This document shows, piece after piece, positions 133-63,412 of a stretch of 64,000 nucleotides of DNA; position 1 is the first letter of the stretch, and every line of letters starts with the position of its first letter. The DNA comes from Enterobacteria phage vB_EcoM_IME281: the sequence record MH051913, one strand, 5' to 3'. The notes under the pieces were generated by a model. That model saw only the letters and a list, made by a program, of their open reading frames with translations. It was not told the DNA's origin and ran no database searches. The position numbers and the translations under genes are program-made.

Positions 133-419
133 ATAAAATTGAAATTGAAATCCCAGAACACAACGACGAGAAATCTGCAGAAAAGGCTATCTATGCTCTT
201 CTGAATAAAGTGAATACCATCGAACATGAATGTGAAGCTATTGCCGATAAGTATGGTATCCAATTCGGTACCGGTGATTATGGTTCAGGCCGTACATATT
301 ATCCTGTCGGTTATGAATGCTCCCAGTGGTTTAAAGATGAAATTGAAAACAACGGCGGTGAAGTTGAAAATGGTGTCGTTACAGTTGGTGCTTGGGTCTC
401 CTCTTCGGCAATGTGCTAA
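129..419 (+). CDS. small acidic protein, tandem paralog family member 1 (C-terminal W-x-SSS-x-x-C)
   Basis: 96-aa ORF with AAGGA SD; shares ADKY core and C-terminal GAWVSSSAMC with four neighbours. Confidence 0.7.
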   Translation: MNKIEIEIPEHNDEKSAEKAIYALLNKVNTIEHECEAIADKYGIQFGTGDYGSGRTYYPVGYECSQWFKDEIENNGGEVENGVVTVGAWVSSSAMC

Positions 420-428
420 GGAAACGCT

Positions 429-710
429 ATGATGAATGATTACCGTAAAAATAAAGAGCTGGCTGAAGCAGTAAATGATATTCATAAAGCTATTCGTCGT
501 GCTGAGGAAATTGCAGACAAATATGAGACTCATTTTAATATATACCCTGCTCGCGGTATGGGCGGTGACTATTATTCTCCTGGCGCCCTGAAAGCCGACC
601 TTGCTCACTGGGAAGAATACGGTGAAGCTCAGTACGCTATTGTAAACCAACATGATTACACTACCAGCCTAGAAAATGGTGGATGGGTATCCTCTTCTTC
701 TGAATGTTAA
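429..710 (+). CDS. small acidic protein, tandem paralog family member 2
   Basis: 93-aa ORF; SD TAAGGAA overlaps upstream stop; C-terminus GGWVSSSSEC. Confidence 0.7.
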   Translation: MMNDYRKNKELAEAVNDIHKAIRRAEEIADKYETHFNIYPARGMGGDYYSPGALKADLAHWEEYGEAQYAIVNQHDYTTSLENGGWVSSSSEC

Positions 711-3292: not shown

Positions 3293-3508
3293 ATGAAACT
3301 TTCTAACCAAGCAATCAACATGTTAAACGAAGTTCGTGCAGCTGGTGCTAAATGCCTGATGGTTAACACTCGTGACGGTGACCTTCGTCAAGCATTTGGT
3401 GAATTGAAATCTGCTGACCTGGTTAAATGTTCAGTTGGTATTGGTAACGCACTTCGTGTATCCTTATCCCCTAAAGGTAAAATGTACTTTTCAACAAAAA
3501 GTAAGTGA
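3293..3508 (+). CDS. hypothetical protein
   Basis: ORF downstream of early promoter cassette; GGAG SD lies inside the upstream ATG so second ATG preferred. Confidence 0.55.
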   Translation: MKLSNQAINMLNEVRAAGAKCLMVNTRDGDLRQAFGELKSADLVKCSVGIGNALRVSLSPKGKMYFSTKSK

Positions 3509-3518
3509 GGAAAATATT

Positions 3519-4208
3519 ATGAACGGCCCGAAAACTTTTAATTCTCAAGCTCGTGCAGTCGGTGGTTTTGCTCAAGATATCAGTAATGATATGATTAAAA
3601 ATGAGCCTATGTTCTTTAATTGTGATGCTTATTTTGCTCATAAACACGGCGGTCCTATTACTCGTAGCTTTATTGAAAACCTGCCTGAAGATTGGCAATG
3701 TGGCCCTGATATTGTATTTGATTCCCGTGTACACATGTTAATGCCTGGCTGGTACCCTGCAATTCCAGGCTTCCACCATGATGATGTACCACGCCCGGAT
3801 ATTCCGGTCGGTCAACACTTTATTACCGCAGGGCAACCTGATTATGATAATCCTCGTTACCATTCTGAACATATTCTTGGTCTTGTTAACGCTGATGTGT
3901 GTCCTACCCATTTTGCAACCGGAACTGCACAGTTCAGTCGGATTCCTGAAGGCGAACTTATCTATCGCCAGTGGCATAAAGAAGTTCTGGAAAAAATTGA
4001 GTCCAATGAATTAACCAAGTGGGATGCTCCTGACCGCACGTTACTCCAGTTTGATTGGCAGACATGGCATACAGGTTCTCGTGCAGTAAGTAATGGGTGG
4101 CGCTGGTTTGGTCGTGTGTCTCGTAATACAGACCGTGTTAAAAAGATTACAAATGAAATCCGCGTTAATGCTCAAGTATATCTGGAATTCCCTATGGAGG
4201 GCTGGTAA
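3519..4208 (+). CDS. hypothetical protein (229 aa), His/Asp-rich
   Basis: ORF with GAGGAAAATATTATG context; function unknown. Confidence 0.7.
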   Translation: MNGPKTFNSQARAVGGFAQDISNDMIKNEPMFFNCDAYFAHKHGGPITRSFIENLPEDWQCGPDIVFDSRVHMLMPGWYPAIPGFHHDDVPRPDIPVGQHFITAGQPDYDNPRYHSEHILGLVNADVCPTHFATGTAQFSRIPEGELIYRQWHKEVLEKIESNELTKWDAPDRTLLQFDWQTWHTGSRAVSNGWRWFGRVSRNTDRVKKITNEIRVNAQVYLEFPMEGW

Positions 4209-4795
4209 TGGCCCTTTATGAACCTGGTTGTATGGGTATTGATACAAACTTCATCCGTCGGTCGGAAAATGCTGGAATTATTATCCCAAGTGGTGAGACT
4301 ATGATTATTAAAAAGTCCTGGCGAAATATAGATGACGGTGATGAAGGAATTTCAGCCAGTACAATAGATTGGTCAGGTTGTACTGCCGAAATGAAACAGC
4401 TTTTAATTGAGGAATATAAAATGGGCTATATCGTAAACGGCTGGCAAGCGGAACCACATAAAGAACAGACTCCAGACCCATTGATTTGTTATAGCAAAAA
4501 ATACGGCTTCCGTGCATGGAGTGATGAATACGACAAATTGGTGAGTTCTAGATTCTATGTTTGGATGGGTATATTATTTTTCCCACTCCTAGGGTTTTTC
4601 CTGACAACAGATAATGACCTGCCTATTTGTGTATTCGCTTCAGCGATGTCTGCTGCTATCTTAGGTCTTATCGCATCATTTTTATGGACATCGGTTATCG
4701 AAGTACCTTTTCGTATTTCTAAAGTTAAAAAGGTATATGATGATATCACTAAGAAAAATACATTAAACTCTTTTATTAAGGAATGTCGTAAATGA
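4208..4795 (+). CDS. hypothetical membrane protein
   Basis: 195-aa ORF with C-terminal hydrophobic segments; ATGG overlap with upstream stop. Confidence 0.65.
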   Translation: MALYEPGCMGIDTNFIRRSENAGIIIPSGETMIIKKSWRNIDDGDEGISASTIDWSGCTAEMKQLLIEEYKMGYIVNGWQAEPHKEQTPDPLICYSKKYGFRAWSDEYDKLVSSRFYVWMGILFFPLLGFFLTTDNDLPICVFASAMSAAILGLIASFLWTSVIEVPFRISKVKKVYDDITKKNTLNSFIKECRK

Positions 4796-5028
4796 GCATT
4801 GCAATTTATATTAAATCTGAGTCATGTGATTCATATCTATATTCCTATGATACCGGAACATCAGAAGAGAAAATTAAAGAAGACTTAGAAAGCGATATGG
4901 ATATGTTCTGTCCTATTGGTGACTATATGCTTCAAGTGTCTGATAGTGAAAGTCCATCATCAGAAAATAGACTTCAAATTATTATGCAAGATATTTTTAA
5001 ACAATCATGGGAACGAGACGATGGGTAA
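4792..5028 (+). CDS. hypothetical acidic protein
   Basis: 78-aa ORF, overlaps nudE start. Confidence 0.45.
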   Translation: MSIAIYIKSESCDSYLYSYDTGTSEEKIKEDLESDMDMFCPIGDYMLQVSDSESPSSENRLQIIMQDIFKQSWERDDG

Positions 5029-13393: not shown

Positions 13394-13591
13394 ATGTTAT
13401 ACGATCCAAATGGTTGTTCTGAAGATGGTGTGATTGCCCTTTTAGCAGATGTTGAAGAATCTGACGATGACGTCTTTGTTAAAGATTGGGAAGAAAAAGG
13501 TGGAATCACGCTCCAACAAGAAAATGATATGATTTGTCTGAATGCAGACCAAGTCGAAGAGCTTTATAGTATTTTAAAACATAACCGTTGA
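13394..13591 (+). CDS. hypothetical acidic protein
   Basis: 65-aa ORF with GTGAGGAAATTGTAAATG context. Confidence 0.5.
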   Translation: MLYDPNGCSEDGVIALLADVEESDDDVFVKDWEEKGGITLQQENDMICLNADQVEELYSILKHNR

Positions 13592-13601
13592 GGAATAGAA
13601 A

Positions 13602-14162
13602 ATGATTATTGAAACAACTGAATTGTTTGGCGAACTGTCCGCTGAAGTAGTTAATAACGCAATTGAGCTTTCACAAGAAGACGATAAAATCGTACTGACT
13701 ATCGCTGATATTAAACCGCTTTATGATTTAATGGTTTTAGATAGACACGATTATCTTAACGGTCGGGCTAGTGCTCCTATCGATATCAATGATGATATGT
13801 TTGCCTATATCTATAAAAATGAAACCGGGTTTAATCTGGAAAATGGTATTGAATGTCTGAGCATCAGCGATTCTGATAAATTCTTTGATTGTATTTTCAA
13901 ACTGTTCCAGGAAGAATGCAAGCCGGAAGTTGAATGGAAAGTCCCTGGCCAAGATGCCGTGATTCGTTCTAGTGAAACCTTTGAAGGTGATGAAGAAGAA
14001 CTGAATTATGATACTGAATTAACCGTGTATCAACATCAGGGCCGTGATTTGTTATCCTTGACCCAAAGACACGATGGTGAAAGTGAAGTGGTATTTACTA
14101 AAGACGAACTAAAAGTTTTAGTCTCTTATCTGAACTCTGTTATCCCAACTATGAACTCTTAA
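13602..14162 (+). CDS. hypothetical acidic protein
   Basis: 186-aa ORF with GAGGAA SD. Confidence 0.6.
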   Translation: MIIETTELFGELSAEVVNNAIELSQEDDKIVLTIADIKPLYDLMVLDRHDYLNGRASAPIDINDDMFAYIYKNETGFNLENGIECLSISDSDKFFDCIFKLFQEECKPEVEWKVPGQDAVIRSSETFEGDEEELNYDTELTVYQHQGRDLLSLTQRHDGESEVVFTKDELKVLVSYLNSVIPTMNS

Positions 14163-14631: not shown

Positions 14632-15638
14632 GAACAGTTATGAAAGGCTACTTCGGTAGTCACCTTTATGGAACAAGTACTCCAGAATCTGATGTTGATT
14701 TTAAAGAAATCTTTGTTCCACATCCGCGTGATATTCTGTTAGGTACGGCTATGAACCATACCAACCTGAATACGAATAACACTGCTTCCAAAAACACTAA
14801 AGATGATGTTGACCACGAGCTTTACAGCCTGAAATATTTCTTTAAACTGGCGGCAGATGGCGAAACCGTTGCTCTGGATATGCTCCACACTCCACCTGAA
14901 ATGGTGGTTAAATCTGATTTACCTGGTGTATGGAAATTTATCCAAGACAATCGTTCTCGGTTCTATACGACTAACATGAAAGCCTATTTAGGGTACGTCC
15001 GTAAGCAAGCTTCTAAATATGGTGTTAAGGGTTCTCGACTAGCTGCACTGCGTGGTGTACTGGCTATTGTTAACCAGATTCCTGAACAGTGGGTCGATTA
15101 TCAAGAAGGAATCCCTGATAGACTTCGTCGTACTAAGGTAGAAGATATCAAACACAGACTCCCTGAAAATGAGTTCTGTGAATGGGTATTCCATAACCAT
15201 GAGAAAACAGGTCCGCAAACGTTCTATACTGTTCTAGGACGTAAGTACCAAACTACTTTGTCTTTAATCGAGCTCAAGCAATCTCTGAATAAGCTCGATG
15301 CTGAATATGGTGAACGTGCCCGTAAAGCTGAAGCTAACGAAGGTATTGACTGGAAAGCTCTGAGCCATGCTTATCGGGCTGGGTATCAATTGTTGGAAAT
15401 CTACCAAACAGGCGACCTGGTATTCCCATTGCGCGAAGCCTCTATCATTAAGCTGATTAAGGCCGGTGAACTTCCATTTAAAGAGGTCCAAGAACTTCTT
15501 GAAGACACTGTTGATTTAGTCGAAGTACTGGCTATCCAGGCTCATAAGAACGGTATGCCTGCTAAGGTAGATATGAAGTTCTGGGACAAGTTTGTTGAAG
15601 AGGTATACCTTGACAACCACAACTCTTATTATCGATAA
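14628..15638 (+). CDS. predicted nucleotidyltransferase (Pol-beta-like fold)
   Basis: hG[GS]-x10-D-x-D motif FGSHLYGTSTPESDVDF near N-terminus; 336 aa. Confidence 0.6.
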   Translation: MRTVMKGYFGSHLYGTSTPESDVDFKEIFVPHPRDILLGTAMNHTNLNTNNTASKNTKDDVDHELYSLKYFFKLAADGETVALDMLHTPPEMVVKSDLPGVWKFIQDNRSRFYTTNMKAYLGYVRKQASKYGVKGSRLAALRGVLAIVNQIPEQWVDYQEGIPDRLRRTKVEDIKHRLPENEFCEWVFHNHEKTGPQTFYTVLGRKYQTTLSLIELKQSLNKLDAEYGERARKAEANEGIDWKALSHAYRAGYQLLEIYQTGDLVFPLREASIIKLIKAGELPFKEVQELLEDTVDLVEVLAIQAHKNGMPAKVDMKFWDKFVEEVYLDNHNSYYR

Positions 15639-22474: not shown

Positions 22475-22648
22475 ATGAGTACCAAAATTGAAGTTGGCCG
22501 TCATAAAGGCCGTCTGATTGAACATTCACTTTACGAATTGTCGGATTCCCGTAAGTTACCTGATGAAGAATCTGCTTTAATTTTTGCTGCAGCCGATTAT
22601 ATTCATTGGCTTGAAGCTCAACTTCGCTTTTCCGATGAGGCCTTCTGA
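22475..22648 (+). CDS. hypothetical protein
   Basis: 57-codon ORF not in track, ATGA-coupled to next gene. Confidence 0.4.
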   Translation: MSTKIEVGRHKGRLIEHSLYELSDSRKLPDEESALIFAAADYIHWLEAQLRFSDEAF

Positions 22649-22950
22649 TGAATTTATTTGAATTTGAAGGTAAAACTGTTCGTATTACTGAAGAAGATGT
22701 CGACCATTATGTTGACTGGCCTGAATTAAACGGCAATCGCGGTTTTGAGTCAGGCGAGCTCTGTGAAGGTGCTGAAGTTAAAATCTTGAAGGTGGAGATT
22801 TCTCCATGGGGCAATCCTGAAATCATTGGCGTAACTGCTATCGAATTCAATGGTAAGGTATACGAATACACTAAAGAAATGTTTGAAGATACTAAAGCTT
22901 CATTCTGGTGTTTTTGGACTAACGATGATAATGAATTTGAGGTCGCATGA
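22648..22950 (+). CDS. hypothetical acidic protein
   Basis: 100-aa ORF. Confidence 0.5.
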   Translation: MNLFEFEGKTVRITEEDVDHYVDWPELNGNRGFESGELCEGAEVKILKVEISPWGNPEIIGVTAIEFNGKVYEYTKEMFEDTKASFWCFWTNDDNEFEVA

Positions 22951-23132
22951 AAACTGCATTAGTCTATACCGAAAAGTTAAATGGTGACAAAGTCTGGAAA
23001 CTTCTTATTAAAGGAAGTCCTACCGACCAGTTTATGGCCACCTGTATTGGATTGTATACTCGTCCTACTAAAAAGATGATTCGTCAATTTAAACGGTTAC
23101 ATCGCTCGTTTTATAGTACATTCGAAAAATAA
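22947..23132 (+). CDS. hypothetical basic protein
   Basis: 61-aa ORF. Confidence 0.4.
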   Translation: MKTALVYTEKLNGDKVWKLLIKGSPTDQFMATCIGLYTRPTKKMIRQFKRLHRSFYSTFEK

Positions 23133-29651: not shown

Positions 29652-29911
29652 CTTTAGATGAATTCAAAAAATCGGGACTTGAACTGGAACACGACTGTAT
29701 AGTTATTGATGATGATGGTCAACCTAGTACAATTAAGTTCTGGTTTGAAGCCGTGAGCACTCGTGATACCGGCGAGCTTATTAAAGTTTATGTTGCTACC
29801 GATTGGGCTGTAGAATTTAGCTTTAATGTAATGGTAGATGATACTCCAGAAACATTAATTCATATGGCTGAATCATGCATCAAGGATGCTTATAACGATG
29901 AAGACTTTTAA
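29648..29911 (+). CDS. hypothetical acidic protein
   Basis: 87-aa ORF between 47 and 46. Confidence 0.5.
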   Translation: MTLDEFKKSGLELEHDCIVIDDDGQPSTIKFWFEAVSTRDTGELIKVYVATDWAVEFSFNVMVDDTPETLIHMAESCIKDAYNDEDF

Positions 29912-31580
29912 GTTAAAGAAAGTAACGTATAAAAATATTATGTCGGTCGGGCAGCAGCCCATTACAATCCAACTTGATAAGGTCCAAAAGACCTTAGTCA
30001 CTGGTAAAAATGGTGCAGGGAAATCAACATTCCTTGAAGCTGTAACATTTGCTCTGTTCGGTAAGCCTTTTCGTGATGTTAAGAAAGGGCAGTTGATTAA
30101 CTCAAGTAACAAGAAAGACCTTTTGGTCGAACTGTGGATGGAATATGATGTCAAAGAATACTATATCAAACGCGGGCAAAAACCCAACGTTTTTGAAATC
30201 TCTTGTGACGGTGAACGTCTTGATGAATCTGCCAGCAGTAAAGACTTCCAAGCGGAATTTGAACAGCTTATCGGAATGTCCTACGCAAGCTTCAAACAAA
30301 TTGTCGTACTCGGCACAGCTGGATATACCCCTTTTATGGGCCTATCCACTCCTGCAAGAAGAAAACTCGTCGAAGACCTCTTAGAGGTTTCCGTATTAGC
30401 GGATATGGATAAGTTGAACAAATCTTTGATTCGTGAGACTAATAGCCAAATCCAAGTAATAGACGTTAAGCAAGATTCTATTACCCAACAAATTAAAATT
30501 TATAATGACAACGAAGAACGCCAACGTAAATTATCTGGCGAGAACGCGGCCCGTCTACAATTAATGTATGATGAGCTCGTTAAAGAAGCCAGGACTGCGA
30601 AGGCGAGCATAGAATCCCTGACTGATGAATTACTCAATGTTATCGTAGATGATGACCCTAGCGATTCCATGAGTGACCTGAGTAATAAAGGATTTGCAAT
30701 CAAAAATGATATGGCAACCTTTACAAAGGTGGTTAAGTTATACGAAACCGGTGGTCACTGCCCTACGTGTATGCAAGGGTTAGAAGAGCATGGTAATATC
30801 CTTACTAAAATTAAGGATAAAAACTTTGAGCTTCAAAAATCTTTGGATAAGATTAATGAGCAATACCAAGAGCTCAAGCTCATTAAAGACCAAGTAACCG
30901 AACAACGCAATAAAGCATTGGCTATTAAATCTCAGATAGCTACTCATAAGCAGCAAGCCATTACTGCTGTAGAGAAAGCCAAAAAGGTTAAGGTATTAAT
31001 TGACCAAGCGGCAGCTGAGTTCGTAAGTAATGCCGAAGAGATTGCTGCGCTTCAAGCAGAGCTTGATAAAATCGTCTCTACCAAATCGTCCTTGGTAATG
31101 GAAAAATATCATCGTGGAATTCTGACAGAAATGTTGAAGGATGCAGGTATTAAAGGTTCCATTATTAAGAAATACATTCCTATCTTTAATAAGCAGATTA
31201 ATTCTTATTTGAAGATTATGGAAGCGGACTACGTCTTTACCCTAGACGAAGAATTCAATGAGACGATTAAATCACGTGGACGTGAAGACTTTAGTTATGC
31301 TTCATTTTCACAGGGTGAGAAAGCACGTATTGATATCGCACTACTTTTTACCTGGCGTGATATTGCTGAAAAAGTCAGTGGAGTCCACATTAGTACATTA
31401 GTGTTGGATGAAGTTTTTGATGGAGCAGTTGACGCTGAGGCTGTTAAGGCGATTGCAAGTATTCTTAATAGTCTTGAAGACAGTAATGTTTTTATAATCA
31501 GCCACAGGGACCATGACCCTCAAGCATATGGTCAGCATTTACAAATGAAAAAGGTTGGTCGATTTACAATTATGGAATAA
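29898..31580 (+). CDS. 46: recombination endonuclease subunit gp46 (Rad50/SbcC-like ATPase)
   Basis: Walker A GKNGAGKST, coiled-coil middle, C-terminal signature/Walker B LVLDEVFDG; 560 aa. Confidence 0.92.
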   Translation: MKTFKLKKVTYKNIMSVGQQPITIQLDKVQKTLVTGKNGAGKSTFLEAVTFALFGKPFRDVKKGQLINSSNKKDLLVELWMEYDVKEYYIKRGQKPNVFEISCDGERLDESASSKDFQAEFEQLIGMSYASFKQIVVLGTAGYTPFMGLSTPARRKLVEDLLEVSVLADMDKLNKSLIRETNSQIQVIDVKQDSITQQIKIYNDNEERQRKLSGENAARLQLMYDELVKEARTAKASIESLTDELLNVIVDDDPSDSMSDLSNKGFAIKNDMATFTKVVKLYETGGHCPTCMQGLEEHGNILTKIKDKNFELQKSLDKINEQYQELKLIKDQVTEQRNKALAIKSQIATHKQQAITAVEKAKKVKVLIDQAAAEFVSNAEEIAALQAELDKIVSTKSSLVMEKYHRGILTEMLKDAGIKGSIIKKYIPIFNKQINSYLKIMEADYVFTLDEEFNETIKSRGREDFSYASFSQGEKARIDIALLFTWRDIAEKVSGVHISTLVLDEVFDGAVDAEAVKAIASILNSLEDSNVFIISHRDHDPQAYGQHLQMKKVGRFTIME

Positions 31581-31597
31581 GCCTCTTATTGAGGCTT
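31579..31597. terminator. bidirectional hairpin between convergent gene 46 and HNH gene
   Basis: AAGCCTC-ttatt-GAGGCTT overlapping both stop codons. Confidence 0.5.
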
Positions 31598-32323
31598 CAT
31601 TTTACAGTTATCGAAATGCCAACGATTCATATTACCGGAATTCCCTTGTTTACCACAATGAGGGCATTCTACCTTCTTTTCTGATTTTTTGCGTCCGTTA
31701 GGATTTTTCTTACAAAAAACTTTATGAGCCGCAATAACACAGGATTTTCCTGAAAGGCCACAGAATTCACATTCCACAATTTTATGGACCATGTTTTCTA
31801 GGCCTTTCTTTATTTTTAATTTTTGCTCTTCAGATATAGAGCGGTCTACTTTATTAGGGCCTTTAGGACAGTTATCGAAATGCCATCTGTTCATATTGCC
31901 TACCAATCCAGTTTTGCCACAGTGTGGACAGGTAACTCTAGGCTTTTTTAAAGCGGAAATTGACATTTTCTTTCTGGTTTCTTCCGAGAATTCTTTATCC
32001 TTTTGGGCTTCTGAATTCTTACGACGAAGCCATCCAAATAATTTATTTTTAGACCTATCAGCTTTTGGTGAGCTAACTGTCATCATTCTTGCTGCATAGA
32101 CTAACGATGCGTTATCTGGATGGATTTTAACTAACAACTGGTGAGCCAAGTAATGTTCTTCAGGTGTTAAGTCTACCAAGTTTAAAGCGTCATCCGTCCC
32201 ACCCATGCATTGTGGTATAATGTGATGACGTTCTTTATAGGTAGTTAAATTTCTATTAACTGCTCGTTGAATAAGCTTTTCGTATATTGATTTATAATTC
32301 ATTATCAAATCCTTATTTGACAC
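31586..32323 (-). CDS. free-standing HNH homing endonuclease with C-terminal zinc-finger repeats
   Basis: HNH core HHIIPQCMGGTDDALNLVDLTPEEHYLAH; three CPHCGK..GNMNRWHFDNC-like repeats; only sizeable minus-strand gene. Confidence 0.85.
   Translation of the reverse strand: MSNKDLIMNYKSIYEKLIQRAVNRNLTTYKERHHIIPQCMGGTDDALNLVDLTPEEHYLAHQLLVKIHPDNASLVYAARMMTVSSPKADRSKNKLFGWLRRKNSEAQKDKEFSEETRKKMSISALKKPRVTCPHCGKTGLVGNMNRWHFDNCPKGPNKVDRSISEEQKLKIKKGLENMVHKIVECEFCGLSGKSCVIAAHKVFCKKNPNGRKKSEKKVECPHCGKQGNSGNMNRWHFDNCKMKPQ
31586..32323 (-). mobile_element. HNH homing endonuclease gene inserted between genes 46 and 45
   Basis: Opposite orientation to all neighbours; HNH family typical of T4 mob genes. 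Confidence 0.7.
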
Positions 32324-32345
32324 AGCGACCGATAAAGATATTTAT

Positions 32346-32540
32346 ATGGCTTCCAATTTTATAACAGGCCAGCATTTGTTGGCCGTTCCAGAAATAAAGA
32401 GATATGTTTTAGTTAACAACTTCTCTGGAGACGAACATCTTGTTACTGAAGATTATCTCCAAAATGCTTTTAAGTCAGAATATGTTACAATCATGTCAAA
32501 TAGAAATCCAGCATGGTTTGTCTATGAGTACTTTGATTAA
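32346..32540 (+). CDS. hypothetical protein
   Basis: 64-aa ORF. Confidence 0.5.
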   Translation: MASNFITGQHLLAVPEIKRYVLVNNFSGDEHLVTEDYLQNAFKSEYVTIMSNRNPAWFVYEYFD

Positions 32541-32542
32541 AT

Positions 32543-32566
32543 TGCTTTAAAATATTGATTTATAAT
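32543..32566 (+). promoter_or_regulatory. possible middle-type promoter upstream of the gene-45 module
   Basis: TGCTTTA then 11 nt then TATAAT. Confidence 0.5.
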
Positions 32567-32596
32567 ACATTTACCAACTAAATGAGAGAAAATATT

Positions 32597-33016
32597 ATGT
32601 TTGCTACTTCTAATGGCGTTACCGTTAAAGATATCCAAGTTAAAACCATCCGTACTGATTCCAACCCACATAATCAGAACCGTATCCGTAAATCATGGGT
32701 ACTGAATATTGATACCGACTCTGCACGCCGACTGCAGTCTCTTCCACAAGAAACCAAGTTTATGCTGTACAGTATCATCGATAATGATGTATCTGATAAG
32801 TGGATTGAAATCATGCGTAAACACTTTAAAGATTCTTTGGCTGCAGGTGCTAAACTTGTTATCGACCGCGACGGTTCTGAACGTTTAGAAGATGATTATT
32901 GCGTCGACCCTGATGAGCAGTTGCTTGAAGCCGGTTCTATTATTGCTTCCAAGATTCCAGAGTATATTGAATCTCTGCCTGAATCAATCCGTAAACAAAT
33001 GATCGTAATTGCTTAA
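32597..33016 (+). CDS. hypothetical protein (possibly RNA polymerase-binding RpbA by position)
   Basis: ORF from MFATSNG after GAGAGAAAATATTATG; middle-type promoter upstream. Confidence 0.5.
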   Translation: MFATSNGVTVKDIQVKTIRTDSNPHNQNRIRKSWVLNIDTDSARRLQSLPQETKFMLYSIIDNDVSDKWIEIMRKHFKDSLAAGAKLVIDRDGSERLEDDYCVDPDEQLLEAGSIIASKIPEYIESLPESIRKQMIVIA

Positions 33017-33041
33017 TAATTTGACTTGATAAGGAAACATT

Positions 33042-33740
33042 ATGAAATTCTCTAAAGAAACCCTGAACATTCTTAAAAACTTCTCTGGTATTAACCCAGG
33101 CATTATGCTTAAACCAGGTAACACCATTCTGACCCGATCTGTTACCGGTGCAAGTTATGGTGAAGCTACTGTAAGTGATACCTTCGATATCGAAGCAGCA
33201 ATCTATGATTTGAATGGCTTCTTAAGTATTCTGTCTTTGGTATCGGAAAGTGCTGAAGTTTCGGTAAGTGAAGACCAAACAACATTAATTATTAAAGACC
33301 AACGTTCAACAATTAAGTGGCCTATTGCCGACCCAAGCACAATCGCATTCCCAAGTAAAGCTATTCCGTTCCCTGTGGCCGAAGTTATTTTCGACCTGAA
33401 AGCCGAAGATTATCAACAGTTGATGCGTGTGTCCTCTGGTCTGAGTATTGATACATTTGCAATCACTGTAGACGATGGTAAAATTGTTATCAACGGTTAT
33501 AAACAAGTCGACGATAAAGAATTAACTCGCCCATTGTATTCTCTGGTCGTGGCCGACCATGATGGTCCTGACTTTAAGTTCATCATTAACAAAACCAATA
33601 TGAAAATGATGCCTGCTGATTATCATGTGTTGTTATGGGCGCGCGGTGAAGGTCAGGATGCTCGATTTGCAGCTAAGTTTGAAGGTACACAAGCTTCTTA
33701 TGTATTAGCTATGGAAGCAGGCTCAAGCCACTCGTTCTAA
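33042..33740 (+). CDS. 45: sliding clamp gp45
   Basis: 232 aa collinear with T4 gp45 (IYDLNGFL...KIVINGY...FEG..A.YVLA.EA). Confidence 0.93.
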   Translation: MKFSKETLNILKNFSGINPGIMLKPGNTILTRSVTGASYGEATVSDTFDIEAAIYDLNGFLSILSLVSESAEVSVSEDQTTLIIKDQRSTIKWPIADPSTIAFPSKAIPFPVAEVIFDLKAEDYQQLMRVSSGLSIDTFAITVDDGKIVINGYKQVDDKELTRPLYSLVVADHDGPDFKFIINKTNMKMMPADYHVLLWARGEGQDARFAAKFEGTQASYVLAMEAGSSHSF

Positions 33741-51858: not shown

Positions 51859-52172
51859 TTCGTTGGCTTAAGAATTTTTTCAAGACCAAACCTGGTGAAG
51901 GGGTGGTTCCTATCTCAGGTCTGAAGGAATATGTTTATGTGGGCGATGGTATGATGGAAGAAGTTATACGGCAACCTGAAAAAGCAGGTAATGTGGGCCT
52001 GGGTGCCCTTCCTTTGAATTCTAAAAAGTTTAAAGAACATTTAGAAGCTCGTCGCACAAGCCATATTGATAGTACTCCTATTATGGTTGCGGCTGCTGTT
52101 AGTTCATGGACCGGCGATTCGTCTTATTCTGACTCAGGAAGCTGCGGCTCATCGTCCGGCTCGTGTGATTGA
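51855..52172 (+). CDS. hypothetical protein
   Basis: 105-aa ORF. Confidence 0.5.
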   Translation: MIRWLKNFFKTKPGEGVVPISGLKEYVYVGDGMMEEVIRQPEKAGNVGLGALPLNSKKFKEHLEARRTSHIDSTPIMVAAAVSSWTGDSSYSDSGSCGSSSGSCD

Positions 52173-52372
52173 TGAAACCTTTATCATGGCTTAAAGATTG
52201 GCTAGACCGTCCTGGTGATTATCTTGATGACGGGTGGTTGGACCAAGCTAATGCAGAAATGAAACGCGAGTCCGAAGAATGGATTCTTAAAGGTATCCGT
52301 GAAGAACGCGAAAAGAAATTAGAACGCGAAGCTCTTAGAATTATGCGTGACATCTATGGGGATAAATCATGA
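52169..52372 (+). CDS. hypothetical protein
   Basis: 67-aa ORF. Confidence 0.45.
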
Positions 52373-52536
52373 CTACTGAAGAGGCCGAAAAACAAGCTAA
52401 AGAGGCACTGGATTTGCTTCTTAAAATTGGTAGTAAAATGATGGAAGAAAACGAGAAATACATCCAAGAAAATAAAATTCCGGATGGTCCTTTAGTAGGT
52501 AAACTAAAAAGAGGAAAATATAATGAAAGTCTATGA
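52369..52536 (+). CDS. hypothetical protein
   Basis: 55-codon ORF not in track, coupled. Confidence 0.4.
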
Positions 52537-53011
52537 ACTCGAATTCCATGTACGTGATTCTGCCGGACAAACGCGTCCTTATGATGCTACGGTGTGTCTT
52601 ATCTTTGTCGACAATGGTATGAATTCTATAACCCAGTTAGAAACACGATTAAAAGATATTAAGCTGCCAGAAAATATTATGATGAAGGCGTATCATAATA
52701 AAAATGTTGATGTTGCTGAAGGTTGTCCTTTTAGCCTGGCTGAAGCATTACATATCAAGGGTTATCGCCATCCGGACCCGGATGGCGAAGGAACAATGGA
52801 CATTTTCTATAAAGATACCGATAGAATGTCCAACGAACGTCTTAAAGGTCGTACTTATCTTATTTCCGCTACCGAAGACCTTATTGAAGTTGAACGTCAG
52901 ATTTGGAAGCACTTTGATATTGGATTGCGCTTTACCATGACTGAAGACGCTATTCGTGATGCTAAGGTACGAGCTCGTATGTACGAGTACGGTCCTATCG
53001 GTGGTTACTAA
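52523..53011 (+). CDS. hypothetical protein
   Basis: 162-aa ORF. Confidence 0.55.
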
Positions 53012-53199
53012 TGGACTTATTTGATATGTTTGTCATTCCGGACCCTGAGCCTGAAACAACTCAGGAGCCGCCTGTTGACCTTGTCAACGAACTTGATATG
53101 ATTATACGGAAGCATGGTTTTAAGTTGCCTAAAGAGGTCCTTAGTGACCTTGCTTCTTATTACTTAGACCCTCCACCCTGGGCTCCTTGGGTAAAATAA
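53011..53199 (+). CDS. hypothetical protein
   Basis: 62-aa ORF. Confidence 0.45.
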   Translation: MDLFDMFVIPDPEPETTQEPPVDLVNELDMIIRKHGFKLPKEVLSDLASYYLDPPPWAPWVK

Positions 53200-53201
53200 A
53201 G

Positions 53202-53253
53202 TTTTACACCTCCTCCCTTCATGTTATAATGACCTCTAAATCACTGGAGGTCA
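53202..53253 (+). promoter_or_regulatory. early promoter with SD-sequestering hairpin upstream of mod-like gene
   Basis: TTTTAC-N17-TATAAT; hairpin TGACCTC...GAGGTCA contains the SD. Confidence 0.6.
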
Positions 53254-53254
53254 T

Positions 53255-53824
53255 ATGAACATCGAACAAAAATGTCTTTATCAAGACCGAATCAATTCCA
53301 AATTTTCAAAATCTGAACAAGCCTTGTTAGAGAAATGTCTGGATGCCAAAAAGGACCCTAACTTCCATTACGACCTTGACAAACTGGTTCGTAAGCATGT
53401 TACTTCGGCCGTTCCCGTAGAGTTGTATCGTGGGATTACCACCAGAGAACTTGAGCAATTAGAGCTCCTTTCAGTAGGATGTCAATGGTCTCCTGGTCGA
53501 GTTACTTCTTTTAGTACACAATACTCTCAGGCTCGTCAGTTCGCAGGGTCATGGGAATATGGAACCAAAACCATTTTAAGTCTCAGGAATGCACCCTTCA
53601 TTTTTGACTACTACAATCATGCTATCGACCTTGTTCTTGCAGGGAATGTAGACGAACTCGAAATAGATGAAACCCGTATTGACCTCTATGATATGGTTGA
53701 AACTGAATGTGAGTTCATGGTCTCTAGTCTATCGCGATTTGAGATTGTGGAAATCGAAACTATCAAAAGAGACCCATATGACATCGAGTACAAAATAATT
53801 CATTTAAAAATGTTATATTTTTAG
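53255..53824 (+). CDS. ADP-ribosyltransferase, ModA/ModB-like
   Basis: R-S-E triad candidates LYRGIT, SFST, ECEFMV; position between soc and dda as T4 modA/modB. Confidence 0.7.
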   Translation: MNIEQKCLYQDRINSKFSKSEQALLEKCLDAKKDPNFHYDLDKLVRKHVTSAVPVELYRGITTRELEQLELLSVGCQWSPGRVTSFSTQYSQARQFAGSWEYGTKTILSLRNAPFIFDYYNHAIDLVLAGNVDELEIDETRIDLYDMVETECEFMVSSLSRFEIVEIETIKRDPYDIEYKIIHLKMLYF

Positions 53825-60921: not shown

Positions 60922-61599
60922 ATGTTTATAGTTTACTTGACGATTTATTCCGGAGACAAATTACCTCCATTTTATATAGGTTCGACTAGCCTAGAAAAAC
61001 ATTTAAACGGATACCACGGCTCCGTAAAATCTAAAAAGTACCAAGAGATTTACAAGTCTGAATTGGCTGCCCATCCTGAGCTTTTCGATAGTTTGATAGT
61101 TGAAGAATTCGAGACAAGAGAAGAAGCTACTAAAGCGGAGTATAAGTATCAAGTCCTTAATAATGCGGCTAAATCTGATTTATTTTTTAATAGAGCAACT
61201 GCAGCACCTAAAGGATTTTTCGGCTCCGACGTTAGTAAAGAAAACAATCCTTTCTTTAACAAACATCATTCTCATGAAACTATAAAAATCCAATCAGGCC
61301 TTAAATTAGGTGAACTTAACCCTATGTATGGGATTAAACGCCCTGAACATTCCAAAGCAATGGCTAAAGAAAACAACCCTTTCTTTGGTAAGAAACATAC
61401 AGACGAGGCCTTAATCAAATGCGGTCTTAAAAATCGTAAAAGCCCTGTTTGGGAATATGAATCCGCTTTAGAAGATTTATGGTTAGAATTAGATAAACCT
61501 AAACTGGCTAAATTCATGAAAGAAAGTATTAAACGTGGATTTCCTGAAGGGTCCTATAAAAATATTTTAAAACAATTCGAGAGAAAACATAATGATTGA
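60922..61599 (+). CDS. GIY-YIG homing endonuclease (Seg-like) with NUMOD3-type repeats
   Basis: GIY-YIG core VYLTIYSGDKLPPFYIGST; three NP[FM][FY]GK repeats. Confidence 0.85.
   Translation: MFIVYLTIYSGDKLPPFYIGSTSLEKHLNGYHGSVKSKKYQEIYKSELAAHPELFDSLIVEEFETREEATKAEYKYQVLNNAAKSDLFFNRATAAPKGFFGSDVSKENNPFFNKHHSHETIKIQSGLKLGELNPMYGIKRPEHSKAMAKENNPFFGKKHTDEALIKCGLKNRKSPVWEYESALEDLWLELDKPKLAKFMKESIKRGFPEGSYKNILKQFERKHND
60922..61599 (+). mobile_element. free-standing GIY-YIG homing endonuclease gene abutting gene 39
   Basis: Own early promoter; 3' end overlaps start of topoisomerase gene by 8 nt. Confidence 0.65.
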
Positions 61600-63412
61600 T
61601 AATAAAATTGAAATGCTTTCAGATAAGGAACACGTTCTTAAGCGTCCTGGAATGTACATCGGAAGTGTATCATTTGAAGACCATGAACGATTTCTTTTCG
61701 GCGAGTTTACCAAAGTACGGTATGTAGCGGGTGTTCTTAAATTAGTTGATGAAATCATCGATAACTCAGTTGATGAAGCTATTCGTACTAATTTTAAGTT
61801 TGCCAACAAAATTTCAGTAAGCATTGATTTAAGTTCTAATAAGGTTACTGTAGAAGATAATGGCCGTGGTATTCCTCAAGCTCTAGTGGTTACTCCTGAA
61901 GGTGAAGAAATCCCAGGACCCGTCGCGGCTTGGACAAAAACCAAGGCAGGCGGTAACTTTGGTGATGACTCTGAACGTGTTACCGGTGGTCAAAACGGTG
62001 TCGGTTCCAGTTTAACAAATATATTCTCTGTGATGTTTACAGGCACAACTTCTGATGGTAAATCTGAACTTATTGTTAACTGCTCTAATAACGCTGAAAA
62101 CGTTTCTTGGAAATCAAAGCCATCTAAAACTAATGGAACCAAAGTAGAATTTGTACCTGATTTTAGCCACTTTGAAATGAACCAATTTGAAAAAATTTAT
62201 CAAGATATTACCATTGACCGACTTCAAACCTTAGCAGTCATTTATCCTGATATTGAATTTAAATTTAATGGTAAGAAAATCCAAGGGTCGTTTAAAAAAT
62301 ACGCCAAACAGTTCGACGAAGAGTGCATTATCCAAGAACAGGACAATTGTTCGATATCTATAGGACGCTCTCCTGATGGATTCCGACAATTAACGTACGT
62401 GAACAATATTCATACTAAAAACGGTGGTCACCACGTTGAATGTGTTATGGATGATATTTGTGACGAGCTTATCCCACAAATTAAGCGTAAGTTTAAAATT
62501 GAAGTAACCAAAGCCCGTATTAAAGAATGTTTAACGATGCTGATGTTTGTGCGAAGCATGAAAAATATGCGATTCGATTCCCAGACTAAAGAACGTCTAA
62601 CATCGCCGTATGGTGAAATTCGTTCGCATATTCAGTTAGATTCTAAAAAACTAGCTAAATCCATATTAGCTAATGAAGCTGTGTTGATGCCTATTATTGA
62701 GGCTGCATTAGCACGTAAGCTCGCTGCTGAAAAGGCTGCCGAAACAAAAGCTGCTAAGAAAGCTTTGAAAGCCAAGGTCCATAAGCATATTAAAGCCAAT
62801 ATGTATGGCAAAGATGCTGATACGACTTTATTCCTTACGGAAGGTGATTCTGCAATGGGTCCTTTCATTGAAGTTCGTAATAAAGACCTCCAAGGTGGTT
62901 ATCCGTTACGCGGAAAGGTTATGAATACCTGGGGTATGACTGCTGCCGATATCATGAAGAACAAAGAATTGTTTGATATCTGTGCAATCACTGGACTGGT
63001 TATTGGTGAACCTGCAGATAAAACCAACTATCGTAATATCGCTATCATGACTGACGCCGATGTGGATGGTACTGGTTCGATTTATCCTTCGTTATTAGCT
63101 TTCTTTAGTCAGTGGCCGGAATTGTTTGAACAGGGACGAATTCGTTTCTGTAAGACTCCTGTAATCATTGCTCAGGTTGGTAAAGAACAGGAATGGTTCT
63201 ATGATGTACCTAGTTATACCAAAGCTAAGGACTCTCTACCTAAGCATTCTATTCGTTATATTAAAGGACTCGGTTCTCTTGAGAAGGCTGAATACCGTCG
63301 AATGATTCAAGACCCTAAATTCGATGTAGTTCAATTACCTGAAGATTGGAAAGACCAGTTCGAAATGCTCCTTGGAAACGACCCACAGCTGCGTAAGGCT
63401 TGGATGTCATAA
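61592..63412 (+). CDS. 39: DNA topoisomerase II large subunit (gp39 fused with gp60 region; GyrB-like ATPase + TOPRIM)
   Basis: GHKL ATPase motifs (EDNGRGIP, GGQNGVGSS), TOPRIM EGDSA; 606 aa continuous ORF. Confidence 0.93.
   Translation: MIDNKIEMLSDKEHVLKRPGMYIGSVSFEDHERFLFGEFTKVRYVAGVLKLVDEIIDNSVDEAIRTNFKFANKISVSIDLSSNKVTVEDNGRGIPQALVVTPEGEEIPGPVAAWTKTKAGGNFGDDSERVTGGQNGVGSSLTNIFSVMFTGTTSDGKSELIVNCSNNAENVSWKSKPSKTNGTKVEFVPDFSHFEMNQFEKIYQDITIDRLQTLAVIYPDIEFKFNGKKIQGSFKKYAKQFDEECIIQEQDNCSISIGRSPDGFRQLTYVNNIHTKNGGHHVECVMDDICDELIPQIKRKFKIEVTKARIKECLTMLMFVRSMKNMRFDSQTKERLTSPYGEIRSHIQLDSKKLAKSILANEAVLMPIIEAALARKLAAEKAAETKAAKKALKAKVHKHIKANMYGKDADTTLFLTEGDSAMGPFIEVRNKDLQGGYPLRGKVMNTWGMTAADIMKNKELFDICAITGLVIGEPADKTNYRNIAIMTDADVDGTGSIYPSLLAFFSQWPELFEQGRIRFCKTPVIIAQVGKEQEWFYDVPSYTKAKDSLPKHSIRYIKGLGSLEKAEYRRMIQDPKFDVVQLPEDWKDQFEMLLGNDPQLRKAWMS

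Follow-up and report, generated by a model that had tools for sequence, protein, structure and literature searches.

Enterobacteria phage vB_EcoM_IME281 (sequence record MH051913) carries, antisense to its neighbours and between genes 46 and 45.2, a gene that is probably a free-standing Mob-type HNH homing endonuclease gene, that is, a selfish mobile element of T4-like phages that spreads by homing. The gene seems to be intact and to have come from a related phage not long ago, and we consider its product most likely an active nicking homing endonuclease with a target in the terminal part of gene 46 or at its junction with 45.2. The window analysed here is a stretch of 64,000 nucleotides of this phage. 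The element is already known as an ordinary homing endonuclease gene and annotated so in public records, RefSeq holding the identical protein (YP_010094365.1, phage vB_EcoM_IME281) under the label “homing endonuclease”. As a discovery it has little value, because the Mob family, the HNH-plus-zinc-finger layout and the co-conversion of flanks are textbook T4 biology. It does provide a clean experimental pair: IME281 and the EcWhh-1/JS10-type phages are near-identical for several kb on either side, and a 1-kb cassette is their sole local difference. Together with phage UP19, which holds a rival GIY-YIG endonuclease gene at the same junction, the pair forms a system for nick-based homing, self-immunity and the competition of two endonucleases for one site, and how Mob enzymes home by nicking is an open mechanistic question (PMC2988022).

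The original prediction placed a minus-strand open reading frame at 31586..32323, and this frame is present as reported, encoding 245 aa when counted from the GTG at 32323, which is the longest-ORF start. The ATG at 32302, giving 238 aa, is the more likely start because it has an AAGGA Shine-Dalgarno sequence 7 nt upstream and because all annotated orthologues are 717 nt and 238 aa long. Further upstream lies a perfect T4-type late promoter (Table 1), which shares one base, the first of the start codon, with 45.2 on the opposite strand. Five copies of TATAAATA occur in the 64 kb, and the one belonging to the endonuclease gene is the only copy on the minus strand. In F2 and Roth78 the orthologues are preceded by the same motif, and KpCCP1 has CTTAAATA; the late promoter is conserved in two other genera, as is the 5′ leader across genera. 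The gene had been placed between 46 and 45, which is right on the gene 46 side but not on the other, where 45.2 (32346..32540) comes first, rpbA second and 45 third. Two corrections of the annotation are therefore due, one to the start codon and one to the neighbours, 46 and 45.2.

Table 1. Features of the endonuclease locus in the IME281 window.
Feature	Position	Strand	Remarks
Endonuclease-linked gene 46 allele, last 213 nt	31368..31580	+	Walker B, D-loop and H-loop codons
Hairpin AAGCCTC-TTATT-GAGGCTT	31579..31597	.	Spans both converging 3′ ends; conserved in F2
Insertion relative to empty allele, 775 bp	31581..32355	.	Net length difference 772 bp
Endonuclease coding sequence (more likely start)	31586..32302	-	238 aa; TAA stop 31586-31588; PHROG 655 E 1.6e-69
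Zinc finger 3 (predicted) CPHCGKQGNSGNMNRWHFDNC	31604..31666	-	Residues 213-233; C213, C216, H229, C233 invariant
Zinc finger 2 (predicted), divergent CEFCGLSGKSCVIAAHKVFC	31712..31771	-	Residues 178-197; ligand spacing conserved in orthologues
Zinc finger 1 (predicted) CPHCGKTGLVGNMNRWHFDNC	31868..31930	-	Residues 125-145; strand-strand-helix in model
HNH (beta-beta-alpha-metal) nuclease core	32123..32239	-	Residues ~22-60; E24, H26, H27, P30, G35, N41, H50, H54 invariant
Shine-Dalgarno AAGGA	32310..32314	-	7 nt ahead of ATG 32302
T4-type late promoter TATAAATA	32339..32346	-	Perfect match; 36 nt upstream of ATG 32302

The earlier reading of the product as a free-standing HNH homing endonuclease agrees with its family relations, which place it in the T-even Mob family. 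The protein matches PHROG 655, annotated as ‘homing endonuclease’, and in tblastn it aligned with T6 mobE at 35.5% identity across 99% of the query (E 1e-26) and with RB3 mobE at 44.7% identity over residues 1-102; in total 3111 homologues were found. By these alignments it is shown to be a full-length homologue of Mob type, the class of T-even free-standing HNH enzymes known as MobA-E. The HNH core motif HHIIPQCMGGTDDALNLVDLTPEEHYLAH quoted in the original prediction is found in the protein. Loss of the catalytic His or Asn residues, the mark of an inactive remnant, is not seen: the roles tested were those of the general-base His, the structural Asn and the metal-binding His, and H27, N41 and H50, together with E24, H26 and H54, are invariant in alignments of 34 and of 48 sequences. 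These residues are located on the strand-strand-helix of the predicted structure (pLDDT 92). General-purpose models were less informative. Pfam HNH and HNH_5 (PF01844, PF14279) scored 12.7-15 bits (E 0.03-0.14), below their gathering cut-offs of 21.4 and 27.5; the relatives P0025 and P0029 likewise stay below these thresholds, and the shortfall arises because the family is too divergent for those models. The sub-threshold HNH and assorted zinc-ribbon matches from Pfam and NCBIfam were discarded as unfit for classification. A sequence search of the PDB gave no significant chain, the matches being spurious ones to flavivirus E and CTCF (E at least 0.15), and Foldseek against the PDB with the whole model returned nothing at E <=0.001; since an extended multi-domain model is a poor Foldseek query, we treat the fold evidence as supportive and no more. 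The open reading frame is unbroken in all nine carriers examined, comprising six Dhakavirus phages (IME281 included) and three phages from other genera, and dN/dS against orthologues is 0.04-0.2, a ratio by which the gene is shown to be under purifying selection. Identity of the endonuclease between genera is 68%, 58% and 42-46%; because this roughly matches the divergence of the backbone, the deep history of the gene could be one of vertical descent with repeated loss.

The protein was also expected to end in a triplicated zinc-finger module. Three units of the form C-x2-C-x11/12-H-x3-C are present (Table 1; numbering from the ATG), each predicted to fold as beta-beta-alpha with pLDDT ~92, and on this model the CCHC array is presumed to be the DNA-binding region. 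“Triplicated” describes the architecture well but the sequence loosely, for finger 2 keeps the ligand spacing alone, and fingers 1 and 3 are identical at 18 of 21 aa yet at 45 of 63 nt. In a repeat search around the insertion, finger 1 against finger 3 was the sole meaningful repeat, and neither target-site duplications nor duplicated gene ends were found. [quoted passage not shown] Across the family the number of fingers ranges from one to five, or NUMOD3 repeats are present instead, and finger 3 is the only one seen in all members examined. In P0029, four NUMOD3 motifs (E 1.7e-29) stand where the inner fingers would be, and P0025 has a NUMOD3 match at residues 103-119 (E 0.023). For the IME281 protein, NUMOD3 (PF07460) was absent among the 25 best of 37 Pfam matches, and its N-terminal 120 residues, including the segment aligned to the P0025 motif, gave no NUMOD3 match at E ≤ 0.1. 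Membership of the classical C2H2 family (PF00096) is not supported, the ligands being C-C-H-C and no Pfam match significant; the array bears a weak Foldseek resemblance to CTCF/TRAF fingers (E at least 0.03), with similar topology. Phage FB shares the nuclease domain, differs in fingers 2-3 and shows linkage to another gene-46 allele class, a pattern that plain linkage of adjacent DNA explains as well as an exchange of fingers does.

Comparison of the junction among relatives, recommended by the original prediction, revealed that the site is empty in most of them rather than occupied in all. Empty 46/45.2 sites were found in EcWhh-1, JS98, JS10 and ~30 further Dhakavirus records, and in ~35 enterobacterial T4-type loci of IMG/VR. 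There, the stop codon of gene 46 and the start codon of 45.2 overlap in the sequence ATGA; the insertion alters the end of gene 46 to …TIME* and the start of 45.2 to MASNF…, which reads MSDF… in the empty form. F2, Roth78 and KpCCP1 have an orthologue of the endonuclease gene at this site, inverted as in IME281, and UP19 has an unrelated GIY-YIG endonuclease gene, on the plus strand, at exactly the same nucleotide junction. Occupancy is sporadic and spans at least four genera, and its polymorphism among close relatives is the behaviour of a homing endonuclease gene.

If the target lies near the 46/45.2 junction, carriers are expected to have an allele of their own at the end of gene 46, as was indeed observed. 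Among the 11 phages sampled, this end falls into three deep allele classes which track occupancy perfectly and are 65-71% identical to one another. In the 114 nt before the tract of IME281, the empty and mob-linked classes are 97-100% identical, and the GIY/FB class, whose tract begins further upstream, stands at ~80%. Compared with EcWhh-1, gene 46 shows 74 nt differences in the 70 codons of the tract against 12 in the other 494 codons, and the backbone of the 46–44 region is otherwise ~100% EcWhh-1/JS10-like. The patch 31368..32355, made up of the 213 nt of gene 46 and the endonuclease gene with its promoter, instead shares 98-99.5% identity with KIT01/MX01-type phages. Among roughly 1000 T4-type records matching the 213-nt tract, identity of >=95% is confined to those carrying the same endonuclease. 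Judged from this distribution, the tract is DNA that moved together with the endonuclease gene. Its donor lineage was not identified, the best match beyond the carriers being 73-77% identical; by protein the tract is most Dhakavirus-like (83-87%). The crossovers lie between 31253 and 31368 on the left and between 32356 and 32390 on the right, which makes the transfer one-sided, with 213-327 nt on the gene-46 side versus at most 35 nt on the 45.2 side; the transfer tract of UP19 likewise has 364 nt versus ~0.

Flanking DNA was therefore transferred along with the gene, as expected for a homing endonuclease gene, on a background of high mosaicism. A control over the whole window against EcWhh-1 and MX01 uncovered many other mosaic patches, e.g., much of 1-24 kb and 51.9-53.3 kb, and several of those unlike EcWhh-1 are MX01-like and similar in size to the endonuclease patch. 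Because such patches are frequent, general recombination could have moved the cassette without any action of the endonuclease, and we accordingly gave the transfer patch less weight as proof of homing; the patch follows logically from the presence of the gene, and alone it does not prove repair initiated by the endonuclease. One may then suppose that the enzyme is inactive or weakly active and arrived as a passenger of the ordinary, frequent recombination between co-infecting T4-like phages, and many T4 homing endonuclease genes are indeed untested or defunct, e.g., I-TevIII in T4 (PMC2790892, PMC2988022). We judge this unlikely in view of the unbroken reading frames and low dN/dS reported above, the invariance of all catalytic residues and zinc ligands, the conservation of the gene's own late promoter and 5′ leader across genera, the sporadic use of one site in several genera, and the perfect linkage of occupancy to a deeply diverged allele on the target side.

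Where an active enzyme would cut is a separate matter. The same element may cut at the 46/45.2 junction itself, so that the insertion splits the site in the manner of an intron and the Dhakavirus gene-46 tract is hitch-hiking DNA, not an immunity allele. We regard this as a real possibility, albeit not the one we favour. One argument for it comes from Mosigvirus: at the end of gene 46 the carrier F2 differs very little from PNJ-6, whose site is empty (5 SNPs over the final 85 nt), so that self-immunity does not depend on a heavily recoded flank. This pair, used to localise the target, contains no diverged tract, which weakens the idea of a recoded immunity allele. The HNH gene of IME281 and the unrelated GIY-YIG gene of UP19 were moreover inserted at the identical nucleotide junction, and the HNH enzyme I-HmuI nicks within a few nt of its own insertion site (cited in PMC2790892), which we count in favour of a cut at the junction. 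However, on the 45.2 side of the junction the sequence varies by genus, 45.2 following immediately in Dhakavirus and after a 54-nt spacer in Mosigvirus, the transfer tracts of both IME281 and UP19 are strongly one-sided toward gene 46, and the free-standing relative MobE acts >100 nt away, within the neighbouring gene (PMC2790892).

In the homing scheme that we favour, the endonuclease gene would be transcribed late from its own promoter, on the strand opposite to the surrounding early/middle genes. In a co-infecting phage without the gene, the zinc-finger array and linker would bind the conserved gene-46 3′ end or the 46/45.2 junction, where the HNH domain would nick the bound target, the nick possibly being turned into a double-strand break. 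Recombination-dependent repair would then copy the endonuclease gene and the adjoining gene-46 segment from the donor, which may itself escape cutting because its gene-46 3′ allele has diverged or because the insertion interrupts the site. The scheme follows MobE, which nicks T2 nrdB ~120 nt inside the neighbouring gene; co-conversion results, and polymorphisms of the target give MobE its protection (PMC2790892). MobA is a nicking enzyme as well (PMC2988022), and both enzymes cut one strand instead of making a double-strand break. For the IME281 lineage, the target and the type of cut are inferred.

A main role other than homing would require that the protein serve as a zinc-finger DNA-binding regulator, or as a nuclease that benefits the phage through competitor exclusion, degradation of host DNA or recombination at gene 46. 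There are precedents, in that autorepression is a second function of intron endonucleases such as I-TevI (PMC2988022) and that SegB has lately been reported to help in immune evasion (PMC13096335). In IME281 itself, 20 nt of the leader (32313-32332) match the D-loop codons of the empty-type gene 46 at 16 of 20 positions, a weak match equalled in 15 of 500 shuffles. Against this, the gene is dispensable and missing from most relatives, and marker exclusion is a consequence of homing, not an alternative to it; we consider a primarily non-homing role very improbable. It is also rather doubtful that the CCHC fingers form a modular, swappable recognition array, a natural zinc-finger nickase that could be re-targeted by exchange, with the leader acting as a homing-site-like operator for I-TevI-like autorepression.

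Among known systems, the proposed homing resembles in its geometry that of SegG at gene 32 and SegF at gene 56 of T4, free-standing enzymes that cut the neighbouring conserved gene away from their own insertion site (summarised in PMC2988022). In this ‘intronless homing’ the intervening donor sequence is co-converted, which results in marker exclusion. A cut inside the adjoining conserved gene, at a distance, is likewise predicted for IME281, although the nuclease families and the sites differ. The UP19 endonuclease gene shares the identical 46/45.2 junction, an almost identical backbone and a diverged gene-46 3′ tract of its own, and its product has a C-terminal CCHC finger of the same kind (…CPYCDKIGSNNIMKRWHFDNC; tblastn E 1.5e-8). 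Unlike the IME281 protein, it has a single finger and an unrelated catalytic domain (TIGR01453 group I intron endonuclease, E 1.3e-8; PHROG 314), and its gene is oppositely oriented. I-HmuI of the Bacillus phage SPO1, whose structure is solved, resembles what is predicted for the IME281 protein in being an HNH nickase whose DNA-binding tail is long and has several modules, but it is intron-encoded and has NUMOD-type helices plus a helix-turn-helix in that tail instead of zinc fingers. I-TevI, encoded in the T4 td intron, shares late-promoter expression, a modular layout of nuclease, linker, zinc finger and DNA-binding domain, and co-conversion of flanks; it differs in being an intron-encoded GIY-YIG enzyme that makes a double-strand break and uses a single Cys4 finger as a distance ruler, and its operator autorepression is proven, whereas the IME281 gene shows a weak sequence hint of it.

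A close known relative is MobE of T4, T6 and RB3, encoded between nrdA and nrdB, which shows homology over the full length, the same N-terminal HNH domain followed by a separate DNA-binding region at the C-terminus, and the same sporadic, intergenic position beside a conserved essential gene whose flanking segment is co-inherited. The insertion site and the presumed target, gene 46, differ, and the IME281 protein has three CCHC fingers and a nicking activity that is predicted. Moreover, mobE is co-oriented with its neighbours, promoterless and limited by an internal terminator (PMC2790892), whereas the IME281 gene runs against its neighbours, with a late promoter of its own. In orientation it is matched by segD, located between genes 23 and 24, which is the one T4 homing endonuclease gene opposite to its neighbours; segD encodes a GIY-YIG enzyme, no segD-specific promoter was found and its transcript is thought to be very low (PMC2988022). 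With a perfect TATAAATA that is conserved in other genera, the IME281 gene illustrates how an inverted endonuclease gene overcomes the problem of its orientation, namely by a dedicated late promoter, which T4 segD does not have.

The surroundings of the gene fit a free-standing, intergenic element. An Rfam scan of 31000-33100 (E up to 1) gave no match, group I/II introns included, and the endonuclease gene accordingly has no intron context. It had been described as the only substantial minus-strand gene of its operon, and a check of minus-strand ORFs of >=100 aa extends this to the entire 64-kb window, where all the others overlap plus-strand genes except 285..653, which we dismissed as a gene because its translation is noise-like. 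The gene converges on gene 46, as originally reported, with the gene 46 stop at 31578-31580 facing the endonuclease stop, and the two genes do have a hairpin in common, with a 7-bp stem and a 5-nt loop. The left arm lies over the gene 46 stop, the loop contains the endonuclease stop and the right arm falls within the last endonuclease codons. A consensus terminator scan made no call at this hairpin because the T tract is short. The extended hairpin folds at -16.3 kcal/mol (z = -3.4; equally good in 1 of 200 shuffles) and probably ends or stabilises both transcripts.

We found the minus-strand ORF as originally predicted, including the quoted HNH stretch, in a T4-type Dhakavirus of the JS98/JS10 group where the genes run in the order 47, 46.2, 46, minus-strand ORF, 45.2, rpbA, 45, 44 and 62. 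Gene 46 adjoins it as claimed, however the other neighbor is 45.2 and not gene 45. The convergence on gene 46 and the common hairpin were confirmed, the two stops being 5 nt apart and both inside one hairpin (extended fold -16.3 kcal/mol, z -3.4). The start had to be moved: GTG 32323 only opens the longest ORF, while ATG 32302 has an AAGGA ahead of it at 7-nt spacing and all annotated orthologues are 717 nt long, so the protein most likely starts at this ATG and consists of 238 aa. Exactly this protein is public as YP_010094365.1, “homing endonuclease” of phage vB_EcoM_IME281, and near-identical proteins are found in MX01, Bp7 and KIT01, the KIT01 copy being annotated as “mob-like endonuclease.” The endonuclease is therefore of a known kind, publicly annotated already, and its novelty is low. 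It is also the only substantial gene on its strand, since no second convincing minus-strand gene was found in the 64-kb window; only one further minus-strand ORF of >=100 aa is free of plus-strand ORF overlap, and this one, with a hydrophobic, low-complexity translation, is probably not a gene.

Features of the window discussed in the text
Feature	Position	Strand	Remark
Gene 46	29886..31580		
Endonuclease ORF	31586..32323	minus	longest ORF
Shared hairpin	31579-31597		
Leader segment	32313-32332		
Late-promoter element	32339-32346	minus	TATAAATA
45.2	32346..32540		
Gene 45	33042..33740		
Left crossover	31253-31368		
Right crossover	32356-32390		
Diverged/replaced patches vs EcWhh-1	1-24300, 51900-53300		several closer to MX01
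MX01-closer patches, examples	2100-2700, 3400-4000, 13400-13700, 15300-15600, 22500-23100, 51900-53300		22500-23100 absent from EcWhh-1
Second homing-endonuclease-like gene	60922-61599	plus	225 aa, directly upstream of gene 39
Gene 39	61592..63412		topoisomerase large subunit
Other ORF of at least 100 aa	285-653	minus	probably not a gene

The identity as an HNH homing endonuclease is supported by a match to PHROG 655 “homing endonuclease” (E 1.6e-69) and by tblastn similarity to T6 mobE, a T-even free-standing HNH endonuclease gene (35.5% identity over the whole length, E 1e-26). This search of 50,697 phage records matched 1078 of them, among which were RB3 mobE and many others labelled “MobE-like” or “MobB-like,” and a large protein collection held 3111 homologues at E <=1e-5. 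Pfam HNH models gave sub-threshold scores against the endonuclease, and a PDB sequence search with it returned no match. All catalytic residues are in place: two alignments, of 34 and of 48 diverse family members, show no substitution at E24, H26, H27, P30, G35, N41, H50 or H54, counted from ATG 32302, nor at C213, C216, H229 or C233 of the last finger. The Mob class combines a conserved N-terminal HNH domain with a protein-specific C-terminal DNA-binding region of zinc-finger type (PMC2790892; PMC2988022; PMC10448857). Here it holds three C-x2-C-x11/12-H-x3-C units (residues 125-145, 178-197, and 213-233), although “triplicated” describes them only in part, as two are near-identical and finger 2 shares ligand spacing alone with the others. 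Fingers 1 and 3 agree at 18 of 21 residues and 45 of 63 nucleotides with 8 synonymous codon changes; judging from these sequences, they are an old duplication kept by protein-level selection and not a recent DNA repeat. Family-wide, the stretch from nuclease to last finger is modular, with 0-4 extra fingers or NUMOD3 repeats. A confident AlphaFold model from the 48-sequence alignment (pLDDT 92.2) predicts the HNH residues on a strand-strand-helix core and each of the three fingers as strand-strand-helix.

A perfect T4 late-promoter element lies 36 nt ahead of the ATG. The window holds five copies of this element, a total at chance level, and the one on the minus strand is that of the endonuclease. 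The F2 and Roth78 orthologues are preceded by TATAAATA and the KpCCP1 orthologue by CTTAAATA, and in these other genera the leader as far as the Shine-Dalgarno is recognisably conserved too. If this reading of the sequence is correct, the endonuclease gene would be transcribed late, against surrounding early/middle genes, and early read-through out of gene 46 would be antisense to it. In T4, segD is the sole endonuclease gene likewise inverted versus its neighbors, however no promoter was found for it (PMC2988022), unlike the late promoter predicted here. The leader segment, kept in F2 and Roth78, matches gene-46 D-loop codons of the empty-site phage EcWhh-1 (2028-2047 of its locus) at 16 of 20 positions, with 15 of 500 shuffles as good; the match may reflect an operator similar to the homing site, of the I-TevI kind, or chance.

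Absence from some relatives, as the original prediction had it, is well documented. Of the Dhakavirus records that span this stretch, KIT01, 04086, MX01, Bp7, and FB are carriers, UP19 and UGJNEcP3/P4 have a different gene at the site, and ~30 more, with JS98, JS10, and EcWhh-1 among them, are shorter there by 772 bp. The endonuclease was likewise found in none of ~35 enterobacterial T4-type IMG/VR loci where 46 is followed by 45.2/rpbA/45. In the empty genomes the 45.2 start overlaps the gene 46 stop, and the insertion disrupts this ATGA coupling, so that gp46 now ends in …TIME and gp45.2 begins with MASNF…. At this junction, and inverted in the same way, orthologues are found in F2 (nearest relatives Mosigvirus), Klebsiella phage Roth78, and Slopekvirus KpCCP1, with 68%, 58%, and 42-46% identity, respectively. 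UP19, with a backbone ~99.9% identical to that of the window, carries an unrelated plus-strand GIY-YIG endonuclease of 227 aa (2195-2878 of its locus) exactly at the equivalent of junction 31580/32356. Its C-terminal finger is of the same CCHC type (…CPYCDKIGSNNIMKRWHFDNC), and UP19's own diverged gene-46 3′ tract begins at about window position 31217. The most useful by-product is this one site with three natural states, empty, HNH, and GIY-YIG, each linked to a gene-46 3′ allele of its own.

Sliding identity over 29.4-35.2 kb revealed the transfer footprint. EcWhh-1 and UP19 are 97-100% identical to the window except in a patch around the gene, inside which KIT01, MX01, Bp7, and 04086 reach 96-100%, against backbones of ~83-97% outside. 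Versus EcWhh-1, the last 70 codons of gene 46 carry 74 nucleotide differences (35 codons changed only synonymously, 13 non-synonymously), the remaining 494 codons only 12. At >=95% identity, this 213-nt allele is confined to records with this endonuclease; outside them the closest match is ~74-77%, and at the protein level the tract is most Dhakavirus-like. Within Dhakavirus, the last 213 nt of gene 46 form an empty class (EcWhh-1, JS98, and two IMG/VR genomes; 92-99% within-class identity), a mob-linked class (window, KIT01, and MX01; 98-99.5%), and a GIY/FB class (UP19 and FB; 84%), with 65-71% between classes. Over the 114 nt just before, empty and mob-linked classes agree at 97-100%, against ~80% for the GIY/FB class, where the tract starts further upstream. 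In the Dhakavirus sampled, the divergence step is sharp, adjoins the endonuclease gene and is perfectly linked to occupancy, the same kind of step as at characterized T-even endonuclease targets such as nrdB/mobE (PMC2790892). In FB the endonuclease (2189-2905 of its locus) is chimeric, with ~89-99% DNA identity to the window from N-terminus to finger 1 and just 54-71% in fingers 2-3, beside a gene-46 tract of the UP19-like class (84%) and not the mob-linked one; such a pattern could result from one crossover within the gene or from exchange of a finger module. In Bp7, gene 46 is annotated as two fragments (501-2001 of its locus) with small indels within the endonuclease-linked tract, which may stem from sequencing errors or from genuine damage beside the endonuclease gene.

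That said, any inserted gene must, as a matter of logic, lie in some patch of this kind; the information is in how tight and one-sided the patch is and in the linkage of allele classes to occupancy, rather than in its existence. As a control, the entire window was cut into 200-nt pieces and compared with EcWhh-1 and MX01. It is by no means EcWhh-1-like throughout, affinity switching across much of 1-24 kb and in the 51.9-53.3 kb patches, in several cases towards MX01. The genome is highly mosaic, so patches made by ordinary recombination are common. Furthermore, in a second genus the gene-46 3′ end hardly differs between the occupied F2 and the empty PNJ-6, which are 98.6% identical to each other, thus a heavily recoded flank is no general requirement for self-protection; the same likeness speaks for a live alternative, a target spanning the 46/45.2 junction.

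None of the nine carriers examined (six Dhakavirus, the window among them, and three of other genera) has an interrupted ORF, and dN/dS is 0.04-0.16 against close Dhakavirus copies and ~0.2 against FB and F2. Together with the invariant active-site and zinc ligands, the conserved promoter, and the cross-clade acquisition, this sequence evidence favors a functional enzyme. By homology to MobE and MobA, the precedent for strand-specific nicking (PMC2790892, PMC2988022), its chemistry would most likely be strand-specific nicking that becomes recombinogenic.

Other possibly mobile genes were noticed. The second homing-endonuclease-like gene matches PHROG 10820 “HNH endonuclease” (E 1e-46) and PHROG 314 “homing endonuclease” (E 1.6e-20); EcWhh-1 has it and MX01 lacks it at that position, therefore it is polymorphic too. 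Between 45 and 44, MX01 (4355-4921 of its locus) and Bp7 (4339-4917) have an extra ORF of ~570 nt, missing from the window, KIT01, and EcWhh-1, which may be another mobile insertion.
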